From NCBI GenBank assembly GCA_965197585.1, contig OZ240215.1, positions 896,001 to 960,000 on the forward strand: a stretch of 64,000 bases of DNA, given 5' to 3'. A program made the translations under genes and the position numbers. Below the pieces are notes generated by a model. That model searched no databases, was not told where the DNA came from, and was given only the letters and a program-made list of their open reading frames with translations. This DNA comes from Dehalococcoidia bacterium. GTDB taxonomy: Bacteria > Chloroflexota > Dehalococcoidia > Plut-88900. Positions 4,591-41,305 of this stretch are shown here, piece by piece. Within the stretch, counting starts at the first letter, position 1, and every line of letters begins with the position of its first letter.

Positions 4591-4666
4591 TGGTGCGCCT
4601 GAAGGGATTCGAACCCCCGACCCTCGGTTCCGAAGACCGATGCTCTATCCGCTGAGCTACAGGCGC
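4591..4666 (-). tRNA. tRNA-Arg (anticodon UCG)
   Basis: GCGCCTGTAGCTCAGCGGATAGAGCATCGGTCTTCGGAACCGAGGGTCGGGGGTTCGAATCCCTTCAGGCGCACCA folds as a cloverleaf; loop CT-TCG-GA; CCA encoded. Confidence 0.95.
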
Positions 4667-4700: not shown

Positions 4701-4777
4701 TGGGGTGAGCGAAGGGATTCGAACCCTCGATCTCCAGGGCCACAACCTGGTGCCTTAACCGCTAGGCTACGCCCACC
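4701..4777 (-). tRNA. tRNA-His (anticodon GUG), G-1 encoded
   Basis: GGTGGGCGTAGCCTAGCGGTTAAGGCACCAGGTTGTGGCCCTGGAGATCGAGGGTTCGAATCCCTTCGCTCACCCCA; C73 discriminator, CCA encoded. Confidence 0.95.
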
Positions 4778-20261: not shown

Positions 20262-22715
20262 ATGCCATTCGCTGAGATCGCCGTCGATGCACCCCTGGAA
20301 CCCGACAGGACTTTCACCTATTCCGTTTCCTCCCACCTGGACCTGAGACCCGGTCATTCCGTTTGGGTCCCCTTCGGGCCGCGCCGTCTGCAGGGCATCG
20401 TCTTCGAACTCGCCGCTTCTTCCAACTTCGAGGAAACGCGGGAGATAATCGGGCTTGTCGACCCTGCCCCGATTCTCGGGTCCCGGCAGCTCTCTCTCGC
20501 TCGATGGATAAGCCGCCGATACCTCTGCTCCCTCTTCGAGGCCGCTGCGTTGATGCTGCCCCACGGTTTCCGGCGCAAGGTGCGGACTTTTTATTCGCTC
20601 AACCCAGGCCCTTTGCCTGACTCCTTCGTCCCGTCGGAATCGGAGAAAAAGGCGCTGGATACGTTGGCAGAGGTGGGACGTACGGAAATTGCCGGGTTGA
20701 AGGGGAAGCTGGGGTCTCGGGCACAGGTGAGGGTGGAAAAACTGGCGAGGTGGGGGGTGGTGAGACGGGAGTCGGAGTGGCCGAGACCCGTCGTTTCTCC
20801 CAAATACGAGACACAGTTTTTCCTGAAGATGGATGCCAAACAGGCAGTTGTACGGGCGCGCCTGAAGAAAAATGCAGTCAACCAGCGAGCCCTGCTGGAT
20901 GCACTGTTCGAGATGCCTGACGGGGTTAGTGCGTCAGAGCTCAGAGAGCGCAGCATATCGACTGCTGCGATAAAAACCCTGGGGGAGAGGGGGGTATTGG
21001 GTTCCCGGAAGGTGCGGGTTATCAGGGACCCCTTGGCGTCGAGACACTACGAACGGATGGACGCACCCGCGCTTATGGAAGACCAGCAATGGGCCTGGAC
21101 GCCGATCGAGGAGGCGTTAGAAAAGTCGGCGGCGGGTGGGGAGGGGAATGCGTTCCTGCTGCGGGGGGTTACCGGAAGCGGCAAGACCGAGCTTTACATA
21201 AGGGCGCTGGAGCGCACCCTGGAGTTGGGTCGCCGGGGCATCGTGCTAGTGCCGGAGATATCGCTCACCCCGCAAACGATTCAGAGATTCAGCAGCCGGT
21301 TTCCGGGACAGGTGGCCATCTTGCACAGCCGACTGAAAGCAGGGGAGAAGTTCGACGAATGGTGGCGCATTCGAGACGGGGAATTCGGGGTGGTGATAGG
21401 CCCGAGAAGCGCATTGTTTTCGCCGCAGCCGGACCTCGGGCTGATAGTGCTGGATGAGGAGCACGACAGCTCCTACAAGCAGTCGGAGCCCGCGCCTCGC
21501 TACCACGCCAGGGACGCGGCCCTTGAACTGGCAAAGCTGTCGGGGGCAGTGGTGATTCTCGGGAGCGCGACGCCCGACGTCACGACGTCATATAGGGCGT
21601 CGATAGGAGAATTGGAATACCTGGAGCTCCCGAGACGCATATCGGTCAGGCCCAGGCTATCGGGAGTGGAAGAGGAAGGAATCGGAGGAATGGCGAGAGT
21701 CGACGTGGTGGACATGAAACAGGAGCTTAGAAGCGGCAACCGCGACATGTTCAGCCGGTTATTGCGGAGCGAGATGGGCAAGGCTCTGTATGCAGGCGAG
21801 CAGGTGATTCTGTTCATAAACAGGAGGGGTTTCGCCACGTCGGTGCACTGCCGAGAGTGTGGGCTGGTGGTCAGGTGTCGGCGCTGCGAGGTGGCGCTCA
21901 TTTATCACGGGGCCAAGGGCAAACTTGTGTGCCATCACTGCGGTTATAACATCAGGAAACCCGAGGTGTGCCGAGGCTGCGGCAGCCCGGACCTCGGGTA
22001 TTTGGGCACGGGCACGCAGCGGTTGGAAGAAGAGATGCGGCTGAGATTTCCCAATGCCAGGACATTCCGGTGGGACCGGGACTCGATCTCCAAGCCGTCG
22101 GAGCATGAGGAAGTGCTGGAGAAGCTGCAGACGGGTCAGATCGACATACTCATCGGGACTCAGATGGTGGCCCAGGGATTGCATCTGCCGCAAGTGACAC
22201 TGGTGGGGGTGATGAGCGCCGACGTCGGCATCAACTTCCCCGATTTCAGGGCGGGGGAGCGGGTGTTCCAGCTTTTGACCCAGGTGGCGGGGCGGGCGGG
22301 CCGGGGCCCGGGGGGAGGGAGGGTGGTGGTGCAGACTTTCAACCCGGATCACTACGCCATCCAGGCTGTCGCCGACCACGACTATGTCGGCTTCTACCGG
22401 CAGGAGACCAGCTATCGAAGGCAAAATCGCTATCCCCCCTACGCCCGGCTAACGAGGCTGGTCCACTCACAATTCGACCCGGCCAAGGCGGAGGCTGAGT
22501 CCCAGAAGGTTGCGGTCCGGCTGCGAAAGGAGCGCGACCGTCTGGGCCTGCCGCAGACCGACGTTCTGGGCCCGGTCCCTTGTTTCGTGCCGAGGCTGAA
22601 GGGCCGGTACCGCTGGCACGTCCTGATCAGATGCGACGAGCCCGCCCGACTCTTGGAACGGGTGGGGCTGGGTGAGGGGTGGTCGGTGGACGTGGACCCG
22701 GTGACTCTGCTGTGA
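20262..22715 (+). CDS. priA: Primosomal protein N'
   Basis: GVTGSGKTE, LVPEISLTPQ, DEEHD..YKQ, GSATP, four CxxC zinc motifs, QVAGRAGR, VDVDP. Confidence 0.97.
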   Translation: MPFAEIAVDAPLEPDRTFTYSVSSHLDLRPGHSVWVPFGPRRLQGIVFELAASSNFEETREIIGLVDPAPILGSRQLSLARWISRRYLCSLFEAAALMLPHGFRRKVRTFYSLNPGPLPDSFVPSESEKKALDTLAEVGRTEIAGLKGKLGSRAQVRVEKLARWGVVRRESEWPRPVVSPKYETQFFLKMDAKQAVVRARLKKNAVNQRALLDALFEMPDGVSASELRERSISTAAIKTLGERGVLGSRKVRVIRDPLASRHYERMDAPALMEDQQWAWTPIEEALEKSAAGGEGNAFLLRGVTGSGKTELYIRALERTLELGRRGIVLVPEISLTPQTIQRFSSRFPGQVAILHSRLKAGEKFDEWWRIRDGEFGVVIGPRSALFSPQPDLGLIVLDEEHDSSYKQSEPAPRYHARDAALELAKLSGAVVILGSATPDVTTSYRASIGELEYLELPRRISVRPRLSGVEEEGIGGMARVDVVDMKQELRSGNRDMFSRLLRSEMGKALYAGEQVILFINRRGFATSVHCRECGLVVRCRRCEVALIYHGAKGKLVCHHCGYNIRKPEVCRGCGSPDLGYLGTGTQRLEEEMRLRFPNARTFRWDRDSISKPSEHEEVLEKLQTGQIDILIGTQMVAQGLHLPQVTLVGVMSADVGINFPDFRAGERVFQLLTQVAGRAGRGPGGGRVVVQTFNPDHYAIQAVADHDYVGFYRQETSYRRQNRYPPYARLTRLVHSQFDPAKAEAESQKVAVRLRKERDRLGLPQTDVLGPVPCFVPRLKGRYRWHVLIRCDEPARLLERVGLGEGWSVDVDPVTLL

Positions 22716-22738
22716 CGTGGGCCCCTTGCCCCCTAAAA

Positions 22739-23500
22739 GTGACACGAACCCCTTGACCAAATCAAAACACTTGTACTATTATCCCCTCGACTAGCTCGTC
22801 ACTCACCCTAACTATCTCAAGGAGGAACCACAACCCAGGGGGAAACCCAGCCCCGGCCCCGAGGACTCAACGTCCCAGCCCATCCCAAAGGGCGGCCCAC
22901 ACGCCGCCCCTCGGCTCAAGCGAAAGCCGCCATCTCCTCATACCAAAGGCCCGGCTGCCCCTTCCCCAACCACCCAGGCGATGGAAGGTCCACAGACTAT
23001 GCTCGGCATGCCCCGTCCAAGGCCCCTGCCGATTCAACGCTTCCCACTACCGGATGCGTTTACCCCGGCCATTTACGTGCCGGTTTACCGGACAGGTCAA
23101 CCGACCCCCGGTCTAGCAAGGCCCTCGTGCCTTGTTTGTCCCGCCGTCCCCGCCATCCGTCTCTACGACCGATGCACCGGGACGCCGGTTATGAAAGACC
23201 GCCTCAGGCGGCATCTTCCCCGTCAGCGGTCCGGTCAAGTGCCGCTGCCGGAGGGATCGGCCCCACACAACCCTGACCACAGCCGACAACATGTGGGGAT
23301 AATCCAGCCCGGCGCCGACGGCTCGGCAGCAACCTACGGCCTGGTTTCTAGTCCCGGACCTTCCATCGCCTGCCTCCCCTCAACAAACAAACCCGAAACA
23401 CCCAAATCCCAATCGAAGATGGAACATCCACCTTGGGCGGGTCCGCCTCAGGAGGACTGAATAAAACTCCAGTGTGTCACTAATCTACCGAACGAGTACA
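22739..23500 (+). repeat. Copy 1 of a ~0.8 kb dispersed structured element (promoter, LexA-like box, inverted-repeat-bounded variable interior)
   Basis: Both ends align with the reverse complement of 40186-41056; GTGACAC...GTGTCAC near the ends; perfect 17-bp inverted repeat 22975-22991/23356-23372. Confidence 0.85.
22753..22782 (+). promoter_or_regulatory. Promoter with LexA-like box (element copy 1)
   Basis: TTGACC-N18-TATTAT with AAAC-ACTT-GTAC in the spacer; same layout as copy 2. Confidence 0.6.
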
Positions 23501-23586
23501 CGACCTTTACAGGTCTAAGGCCATTTCATAGAATGGGCCGGTGCCCGAATCAAACATGATATTTCGCTACGCCGCAGAGACTCCCA

Positions 23587-40120: not shown

Positions 40121-40185
40121 TCGATGTCTCCTTTTGATTCTGGTGAGAGACACGTTAGCACAAATCAGGCTGGGATTCATGGGTA

Positions 40186-41056
40186 TGCACTCGTTTGGTA
40201 GATTAGTGACACGCCGGGATTTTCTTTAGTCCTCCAGAGGCGGATGTTCCATCTTCGATTGTGGGGTTTCGGTTTTGGTTCTGTCTGTTGGGAAGGGGAT
40301 GGCGATGGAAGAGGCCCTCTTGCCCTCTAACTGGCTTTGCATCTCTCTTTGCGGGTGTTCCGGCTGTCGGGGGACCTGAAGGGTAGGCCCCGCCTGAGAG
40401 GGAGGGACTTGCAGCCGGCCGTGCCCTCTGCTCGATTATATTCACGGACCGATCCAGGGCAGGATGTCCGTCAGAGGCTCCTTAGGGGTTGTATGCCGCT
40501 ATGGGCACAACGGGGCCAGGGATCCAGCTGTGGCCCCACAGCCTAACTAATGATGTCCTAGTTTGCCGGAGCGATTCGGAGCAAATCCTCCGGCACCCCC
40601 TCGCCGTAGCGCGCTAACTCTTACAATGCGGCCCGAACTTCGAGGCGAAGCTCTATGGGGGTTCTCTCGGTCCGCGAGTACAGCTCCTGTCACCCTTGTT
40701 GTAATCTCTCTGTGCACCCCGCCCCTGGATTCACGCCAATGGCGCACTTACAGCCCGACTACTCGGGAATGACGGGGGGATGGTGGGAGAGGGGTGGGAG
40801 TAGAAAGCCAGGGCGTCTTCCATCGCCTGGGTGTCAGGGAAGAGTGCACGGGACCCGATGGGATGAGAAGATGGCGCCGGTCGCTTGTGCCGCGGGTCGC
40901 TAGGCGACCGTTGGGATGGGCTTAGGCGTTGAGTCCTCGGGTGGGTCGGGTGGGCTTCCCTGGGTGTTTGGTTCCTCCTTGAGATAGTTAGGTTGGTGTT
41001 CGAACGGTGAGGATAATAGCACTAATGTTCAGGTAGGATCAAGGGGTTCGTGTCAC
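40186..41056 (-). repeat. Copy 2 of the ~0.8 kb dispersed structured element
   Basis: Ends homologous to 22739-23500; 18-bp inverted repeat (1 mismatch) at 40301-40318/40810-40827; interior unrelated to copy 1. Confidence 0.85.
41013..41042 (-). promoter_or_regulatory. Promoter with LexA-like box (element copy 2)
   Basis: TTGATC-N18-TATTAT with GAAC-ATTA-GTGC in the spacer. Confidence 0.6.
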
Positions 41057-41091
41057 AGTTGGGGAGACACCGCCCCAGCCCCACAGGGGAA

Positions 41092-41250
41092 CCCTCACCC
41101 CCTTGATCCCCCTCTCCCTTAGGGCCTTCAAGGGAGAGGGGGAGAGAAGAACAGAGGGATACGTTGGCGCAGACGCGCCAACGTATCCCTCTAGTTCGGT
41201 ACTGGGGGAAAGGGGATGGATTCCCGATCGGGGTCGGGAATGACGGGGGG
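41092..41250. repeat. Cluster of three REP-like palindromes
   Basis: CCCTCACCC..CCCCCTCTCCCTT/AAGGGAGAGGGGG (41092-41142); perfect 18-bp stem 41153-41192; GGATTCCCGA..TCGGGAATGAC (41218-41244). Confidence 0.75.
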
Positions 41251-41305
41251 GTGGGGGGTGATGTCACTCCTCTATCTGAACGAGATAGGGGTACAACGAC
41301 ATGAT

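Follow-up and report, generated by a model that had tools for sequence, protein, structure and literature searches.

The closest described counterparts of the element treated here are the miniature inverted-repeat transposable elements (MITEs), among them the Correia elements of Neisseria, which have no transposase of their own, end in terminal inverted repeats (TIRs) flanked by short target-site duplications (TSDs), occur in dozens of intergenic copies and show promoter activity as well as pairing within their transcripts. All of these traits recur, the promoter as a predicted one, in a repeat element that is present twice in a 64,000-nt stretch from a Dehalococcoidia bacterium (contig OZ240215.1, positions 896,001 to 960,000; the whole stretch is called the window below), once between priA and def (copy 1) and once further downstream on the minus strand (copy 2). 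It departs from typical MITEs in being 5-8 times longer, in carrying a complete inward promoter and a conserved modular body of ~0.65 kb, and in inserting at a fixed distance from -35 boxes and in one orientation. We read it, with a probability of roughly 0.75, as belonging to a genus-restricted family of non-autonomous cut-and-paste (DDE) elements of about 0.74-0.89 kb, large and MITE-like, which carry a promoter and a modular RNA body and target -35 boxes; the body is probably a modular, structured RNA.

A single 3.43-Mb contig (59% G+C) of a 92%-complete genome, labelled G000 (contig C1), contains the window, while G001, G002, G003 and G005 denote further genomes of the genus. A sequence-only reading of the window had described two copies with a common left arm of ~250 nt and right arm of ~140 nt around unrelated interiors of 364 and 491 nt, and the two align as described. 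The sharing goes far beyond chance, since nhmmer profiles of both arms, searched against the whole genome, returned 79 left-arm matches (57 full-length copies and 22 partial ones) and 56 right-arm matches. The full-length copies lie in both orientations (41 plus, 16 minus) and the family accounts for ~1.3% of the genome. The gap between the arms measures 287-495 bp in every copy, so that none is long enough for a transposase. The interiors of the 57 fall into six classes of 12, 12, 10, 7, 6 and 6 copies plus four singletons; copy 1 belongs to class A (7 copies in the genome) and copy 2 to class B (12 copies).

A sharp left end, TGATCCCGTTCACATAGAGGGGTGACATCACC, was found in 15 copies, all of which also possess a full right end. 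Aligned by hand as its reverse complement, this left end agrees with the right end, ...GGTGTGTCACTAATCTACCGAACGAGTACA, at 22 of 32 positions, and the intact ends are imperfect TIRs of ~30 bp with 5'-TG...CA-3' tips. The GTGACAC/GTGTCAC pair that had earlier been proposed as terminal inverted repeats is indeed part of them, but forms their inner portions rather than the termini. Among the 16 copies with both ends, a 5-bp direct repeat flanked the element perfectly in eight and with four of five matching positions in four, while left and right flanks mispaired between copies (n=240 pairings) agreed at 5/5 in none and at 4/5 in four. A further 20 left-repeat sites were read in G002, G005 and G003, of which 18 proved to be elements of 739-1029 bp with 5-bp repeats that were perfect in ten and 4/5 in four, many of the 18 being orthologues of G000 copies and as such not independent. 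Uninterrupted sites were present in G003 at all three loci tested, at one of them in G001 as well, and contain the 5 bp once, directly before TTGAYN. With its TIRs, 5-bp TSDs and empty sites, no transposase inside and 57 copies, the element is a non-autonomous transposon.

The flanks also define the landing site. A full right end is retained by 27 of the 57 copies, and the positions following the TSD in these read T (25), T (23), G (23), A (18) and C (18), which corresponds to TTGAC; in most of the 27 a TAnnnT box, judged by eye, follows 17-19 nt further on. The element thus inserts one way round only, its right end placed exactly 5 bp before the TTGAC-type -35 box of a predicted resident promoter. 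The empty sites carry these resident promoters, which therefore pre-date the insertions, and this arrangement leaves the host promoter intact and the element co-directional with the downstream gene. When gene context was judged with a crude open reading frame (ORF) map, none of the 57 copies overlapped a gene, the next gene was co-oriented for 45 of them, with the element ending 45-135 nt before it, 32 were located in divergent gaps, and the orientation ratio in tandem gaps was 13:3. The absence of gene overlap, the co-orientation and the enrichment in divergent gaps are all explained by the -35 rule, which also accounts for copy orientation better than replication direction does; the latter was rejected, as orientation does not follow the irregular GC skew. 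The downstream genes are diverse (def, leuS, uvrA, ribF, amidohydrolases, monooxygenases and transporters among 57 ORFs of many unrelated Pfam families).

For copy 1 the right end proposed earlier (23500) stands, while the left end is located at 22718 rather than 22739. Its features, including the flanking site, are as follows.

22718-23500, plus strand: copy 1, whole element, the left end being taken from the empty sites in sister genera.
22713..22717, plus strand: left TSD TGACG, which holds the priA stop codon (in sister genera the def -35 box is immediately preceded by TGAGG or TGAGC).
22718..22752, plus strand: left end as placed by the empty sites, with a diverged outer part (TGGGCCCC...) and the inner motif GTGACACGAACCCC abutting the element's own -35 box.
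22753..22782, plus strand: predicted own sigma-70-type promoter TTGACC-N18-TATTAT (promoter scan, 10/12 match; boxes conserved across copies).
22790..22974, plus strand: 5' arm of the putative RNA with the invariant motifs AAGGAGGAAC, CGAGGACTCAACG, GCCCATCCCAA, CTCAAGCGAAAG and CGCCATCTCCTCAT (57-copy consensus, orthologues in 8 genomes, predicted helices 1-8).
22975..22991, plus strand: closing helix, 5' strand CAGGCGATGGAAGGTCC, pairing with 23356-23372 and invariant in 8/8 orthologues.
22992..23355, plus strand: class-A interior of 364 nt, a multi-hairpin domain (140 predicted pairs in a 16-copy alignment).
23356..23372, plus strand: closing helix, 3' strand GGACCTTCCATCGCCTG, pairing with 22975-22991.
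23373..23473, plus strand: 3' arm, consisting of a C/A-rich linker followed by AATCGAAGATGGAACATCC and the GGAGGACTGAA motif, and missing in short-form copies.
23474..23500, plus strand: right TIR GTGTCACTAATCTACCGAACGAGTACA, with the element ending ...ACA at 23500 (25 occurrences, all at element ends).
23501..23505, plus strand: right TSD CGACC (3/5 match to TGACG).
23506..23534, plus strand: resident def promoter TTTACA-N17-TAGAAT, the target, outside the element (conserved in 9/9 genomes of the genus and in three sister genera that lack the element).

The outer 21 nt of the copy-1 left end start with TG and are otherwise diverged from the type-2 repeat, while the inner motif GTGACACGAACCCC is nearly invariant in the 57 copies and has its homologue within the type-2 left repeat, in the inner section TGATCCCGTTCACATAGAGGGGTGACATCACCCCC. 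Between 22600 and 23700 the promoter scan returned two sites, the element's own and that of def, against 0.2 expected. RNA-library contigs of three runs part from the window sequence at 23500-23502. In all three sister-genus genomes a mere 2-3 nt separate the priA stop codon from the -35 box of the def promoter (TTTACA-N17-TAAAAT), which identifies copy 1 as an insertion, as the sequence-only reading had supposed. The element is present upstream of def in 8/9 genomes of the genus, and copy 1 was acquired by the genus ancestor, in the gap that separates the priA stop codon from the def promoter; the 3/5 match of its duplications looks as expected for an old insertion whose right duplication has drifted. 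In G003 the priA-def site (locus L106, about 1150-1445) is occupied by an AT-richer segment of ~290 nt, in which all that is left of the element is a promoter-like start (GTGACATTTGCTCC...TATAAT) and its final ~15 nt, on either side of an unrelated body of 250 nt.

The body begins with the predicted promoter directly inside the left repeat, whose -35 and -10 boxes are conserved across copies. No terminator-like site was seen on the promoter strand of copy 1, so that transcription probably reads through into the resident promoter and gene. The body contains no conserved ORF, as 1-nt insertions and deletions separate the copies and the start and length of ORFs differ from copy to copy in each class. 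An ORF of 159 aa at 22981-23460 was rejected as a gene, given that it starts at an ATG inside the closing helix and that copy 2 stops after 30 codons. Similarly, a decayed transposase was rejected after tblastn with 13 of the genome's proteins with an rve (retroviral-integrase) domain matched only a flanking insertion sequence.

The near-invariant parts in the 57 copies are AAGGAGGAAC, CGAGGACTCAACG, GCCCATCCCAA and both strands of the closing helix. Of these, AAGGAGGAAC and the two helix strands are identical in 8/8 orthologues, while the neighbouring def is only 77% identical; CGAGGACTCAACG and GCCCATCCCAA belong to a part of the left arm that is missing from three orthologues. The motif AAGGAGGAAC, situated near the 5' end and not accompanied by a start codon, may be a Shine-Dalgarno-like stabiliser. 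The closing helix measures 14-19 bp with a core of 9 bp (GCGATGGAA/TTCCATCGC) and keeps its pairing in nearly all 57 copies, with two main variants of its inner part (GGTCC/GGACC and GACGC/GCGTC) next to GACAC/GTGTC and GATGC/GCGTC; this agrees with the earlier description of an inverted repeat bounding the interior with complementary inner changes. By hand count, departures from pairing on the promoter strand comprise 17 G.U against 3 A.C, in copies that are related and thus represent few independent events. The left-arm hairpin for which co-variation had been suggested (helix 6) likewise retains its pairing via double changes. In contrast, the proposed right-arm pairing of CCATCTCC with GAAGATGG found no support, both strands being nearly invariant, the full right end being absent from more than half of the copies (30/57) and the 5' strand from three orthologues.

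Folding of the copy-1 RNA gave -268.5 kcal/mol (z = -7.4, compared with z = -4.1 for the opposite strand). A class-A alignment of 16 copies from five genomes yielded 140 pairs with 97.5% of cells paired, and double changes, counted on the structure predicted from this same alignment, occurred in ten pairs, compared with 3.4 +/- 1.4 in shuffles (0/500) and 1-3 after sliding the partners. When only the arms were folded as a consensus (28 copies), the closing helix and two short helices were all that emerged. Neither copy matches an Rfam family: a scan of the window at the gathering threshold returned two tRNAs, and with E up to 10 both copies remained far below gathering. The tRNA genes are located at 4594-4666 and 4704-4776 on the minus strand and are the only matches at this threshold in the window. 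Expression was examined in assembled contigs of RNA libraries, three of which, one labelled as a sponge metagenome, held part of the stretch; short contigs of high depth covered the conserved 5' arm and contigs of low depth the interior, while priA was uncovered, and RNA expression of the element is thereby weakly hinted.

Two further candidates were considered for the body and rejected. A CsrA sponge was suggested by the many conserved GGA motifs, but PF02599 was not found in the genome, while control genomes matched. An element of the IS200/IS605 type with an omega/HEARO RNA is at odds with the TIRs and 5-bp TSDs, and no HEARO match was obtained.

Three loci are filled in several species and permitted six orthologous comparisons. 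The flanks were 83-98.5% identical and the left arms 80-89%, yet the interior was of a different class in five of the six. In one comparison the break-points coincided with the closing helix, while in another the left arm alone was changed. This mosaic fits recombination among copies better than repeated insertion. The sequence-only reading had offered two options, a structured non-coding RNA with an exchangeable centre or a non-autonomous, cargo-carrying mobile element, and both gained support at once: the mobile element through its TIRs, TSDs and empty sites in relatives, the cargo through a promoter-bearing, ORF-free and heavily paired body, and the exchange through interiors that differ between orthologous copies. 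That reading had overlooked the real ends, the exact -35 targeting and the 29 rve-domain ORFs located elsewhere in the genome.

All 29 of these ORFs look like single-ORF elements of the IS481 type, and none has ends matching the element. The main IS481-like element measures 1093 bp and is present in ~21 copies that are 89-100% (most 96-100%) identical to the reference copy. Its ends are TGTAAGTG...CATCCACA (TGT...ACA), its TSD is ATTCC (5 bp), and its target is the loop of a hairpin resembling repetitive extragenic palindromes (REP-like), GTCATTCC...GGAATC. A hand count found its repeat to agree with the right repeat of our element at 16/27 positions; no insertion sequence of the genome has closer ends, and the other rve elements are no closer than random. 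Copies of the 1093-bp element are located in G000 C1 at, for example, 1679597, 1008366 and 1248785. The 5-bp TSD and TG...CA ends common to both elements led us to infer a transposase of the rve type.

The proposed mechanism has three parts. A transposase of the rve type, IS481-like, would act in trans on the ends; the body would be transcribed as a structured non-coding RNA; and interiors and arms would be reshuffled among copies by recombination between conserved segments.

Several observations weigh against this reading. A TIR-flanked transposase was found neither in the present genome, nor at the 20 left-repeat sites in relatives, nor in 185,579 species genomes or metagenome contigs of the Joint Genome Institute (JGI). 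No left TIR is recognisable within 400 nt in 41 of the 57 copies and 30 lack a full right end, indicating that most copies are decayed or rearranged. The TIRs match at only 22/32 positions, with a local-alignment score not far above that of random 80-mers, and it is accordingly the duplications and the empty sites that mainly define the element ends. With regard to the RNA, the covariation that had been called for exceeds its controls but is modest, refers to a structure derived from the very alignment used for the count, and is blind to strand, as the opposite strand gave an equally good consensus fold in four classes with equal pairs and double changes; sense and antisense are therefore not distinguished by folding. 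In 106 left arms, mutual information mostly tracked subfamilies. The short contigs of two metatranscriptome runs lay on conserved repeat parts, and their starts, ends and strand were unreadable. Finally, different interiors at one site could stem from independent insertions into a very specific target.

The alternative that survives best takes the family for ordinary MITEs, in which the promoter and AAGGAGGAAC are relics of the transposase promoter and ribosome-binding site of a parent insertion sequence, the pairing is a by-product of DNA-level constraints or recent copying, and the RNA has no function of its own. The solid transposon features agree with it, as do a promoter directly inside the left repeat, like that of many insertion sequences, the invariant Shine-Dalgarno-like motif that follows this promoter without a start codon, the failure of the fold to separate the strands and the weak hint of expression. 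On the other hand, the body has no similarity to any transposase of the genome, AAGGAGGAAC and the closing helix are unchanged in eight orthologues at a locus where def has diverged, the helix keeps its pairing via complementary variants and favours G.U over A.C on the promoter strand, and double changes exceed the controls. We consider this alternative unlikely, on the order of a one-in-six chance.

Clearly less probable again is a stronger form of the preferred reading, in which the RNA is part of the transposition machinery, for instance as a scaffold that links the transposase with promoter DNA or with sigma-70 RNA polymerase, and the interior is a true exchangeable RNA cassette. If true, such a scaffold would explain the exact, oriented insertion at -35 boxes and make the element an RNA-assisted, promoter-homing transposon.

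We give very little credit to the idea that the copies are chromosomal genes for large RNAs that multiplied by duplication or recombination instead of transposition, their apparent ends being promoter-associated motifs. The retention of the copy upstream of def in 8/9 genomes of the genus, the large share of copies in which no left repeat is recognisable and the use of the GTGACACGAACCCC-TTGAC module by a second family and a few protein genes would suit it, but 5-bp direct repeats of variable sequence occur far more often than chance would give, nucleotide-exact empty sites at four loci contradict it, and the copies are scattered beside unrelated genes. A cis-acting riboswitch- or attenuator-like leader, in which the interior would respond to a signal and regulate the gene downstream, is just as hard to believe, for although the 45 co-oriented copies ending shortly before a gene and the lack of a terminator inside copy 1 are in its favour, the downstream genes are functionally unrelated and not associated with interior class, the resident promoters are older than the element and situated downstream of it, close relatives carry different interior classes at one and the same gene, and no Rfam match exists.

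The preferred reading of a genus-restricted transposon family is reflected in its distribution. Many matches were found in 8/8 other genomes of the genus searched, while outside the genus only three of 32 genomes gave matches, all of them weak (E about 1e-5). In the more distant species of the genus the recognisable parts are limited to left-arm positions 75-260, some interiors and the right arm. The exact left terminal repeat was found in just 7/401 genomes of the class and, in a set of one genome per species (185,579 species), in three records of metagenome-assembled genomes only.

Copy 2 shows that the element is itself a target. Of its earlier bounds 40186 holds, whereas the true left end is located ~230 nt further out, beyond nested hairpin repeats. 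Its features are the following.

41288-40186, minus strand: copy 2, whole element of 1103 bp, with TACCC on both sides.
41289..41293, minus strand: left TSD TACCC (5/5 match with 40181-40185).
41255..41288, minus strand: left TIR CTATCTCGTTCAGATAGAGGAGTGACATCACCCC, from sequence comparison of ends.
41057..41254, minus strand: nested block of REP-like hairpins between the left TIR and the element's own -35 box (same modules upstream of many other copies).
41013..41056, minus strand: GTGACACGAACCCC motif and predicted own promoter TTGATC-N18-TATTAT, conserved across copies.
40810..40827, minus strand: closing helix, 5' strand GGCGATGGAAGACGCCCT (helix survey).
40319..40809, minus strand: class-B interior of 491 nt (12 class-B copies in the genome).
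40301..40318, minus strand: closing helix, 3' strand AGGGCCTCTTCCATCGCC (helix survey).
40186..40212, minus strand: right TIR, with the element end at 40186 (right-end search, TSD).
40181..40185, minus strand: right TSD TACCC (5/5 match).

The REP-like modules (41057-41254, and also at about 40755-40785 in the copy-2 interior) comprise CCCCGTCATTCCCG...CGGGAATCC, CCCCCTCTCCCTT...AAGGGAGAGGGGG and a strong hairpin, AGAGGGATACGTTGGCGC...GCGCCAACGTATCCCTCT, with a T-rich run behind it. Another copy, E660641p, has received an insertion sequence of 1.33 kb (G000 C1 659305-660640) with an rve ORF of 424-438 aa and inverted repeats of its own, which now separates the left repeat of E660641p from the -35 box. 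By these two cases, the REP block of ~200 nt in copy 2 and the insertion sequence in E660641p, the element's own predicted -35 box also draws insertions.

Variation among the copies extends to smaller modules. Copies E114454p and E2369990p carry in the left arm a 22-nt insert, CGGAACGTCCGCCTACGGAGGA, that is similar to the right-arm motif GGAACATCCGCCTCTGGAGGA, which hints at a small movable hairpin module. Short-form copies lack the 3' arm with its C/A-rich linker, AATCGAAGATGGAACATCC and the GGAGGACTGAA motif. At 22789-22802 of copy 1 and at equivalent positions, a loop-less palindrome of 8-12 bp follows just after the -10 box; it is specific for the subtype (GACTAGCTAGTC-like, GTTCGAAC or GTCTAGAC), its halves co-vary, and it may serve as an operator where transcription starts.

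A second family of ~14 elements uses the same GTGACACGAACCCC-TTGAC promoter module with a different 5' domain (...AAGGAGTCCCATGAGTCGCA...GAGCGGTATGGGACCGCCCGG...) and is located outside the window (e.g. G000 C1 62860, 505610, 684518, 1445638, 1590859 and 3035253); some members carry the same GCGATGGAAGGTCC helix strand. The promoter module alone occurs at seven more sites, several of them directly upstream of protein genes. The left terminal repeat holds the palindrome GGGGTGA-CA-TCACCCC, which looks like a regulator-binding site. The remaining two of the 20 left-repeat sites in relatives are a solo repeat upstream of groES. This solo repeat of 35 nt is conserved in three genomes (G000 C1 3404961-3404995, G002 at L150 and G005 at L161) and is situated directly upstream of the groES promoter (TTGCGA-N17-TAAAAT) and the CIRCE operator.

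We found no description in the literature of a transposon that chooses a generic promoter element as its landing site with nucleotide-exact and oriented insertion; the literature searched, PMC9208149 included, offers only general statistics on insertion sequences near promoters. Targeting of -35 boxes would be a natural safe-harbour strategy, as host promoters and genes stay intact, and could serve as a tool for placing DNA upstream of promoters. The cargo is unusual as well: a promoter-bearing, ORF-free body of 0.65 kb in which AAGGAGGAAC and the helix are kept across the genus while orthologous copies of close relatives have different interiors. Should the RNA prove functional, the family would offer a rare example of a large non-coding RNA gene that spreads as a transposon, and 57 extra promoters in tandem with host ones could reshape expression in these uncultured Dehalococcoidia.

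Among described systems beyond MITEs, the IS481 family shares with the element the 5'-TG...CA-3' ends, terminal repeats of ~27-30 bp and 5-bp TSDs, but no rve gene lies between such ends anywhere in the sequences searched, and the resident IS481-like element targets a REP hairpin instead of promoters. IS200/IS605 elements, in contrast, lack both the inverted-repeat ends and the TSDs. Large structured RNAs such as OLE, GOLLD, ROOL and HEARO/omega RNA are comparable in size (0.6-0.8 kb), the absence of an ORF and extensive pairing, HEARO in addition in its link to mobile elements; the present element differs from them in having no Rfam match, 57 copies per genome and no adjacent IscB or TnpB. 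The safe-harbour insertion of Tn7 resembles it in the 5-bp TSD, the TG...CA-type ends and the oriented insertion at a fixed distance into a non-coding target, with the difference that the target predicted here is a generic -35 box rather than one unique site. Putative mobile promoters are likewise promoter-bearing repeats upstream of unrelated genes, whereas the element described here leaves the resident promoter intact and adds a second, upstream one with a long structured leader.

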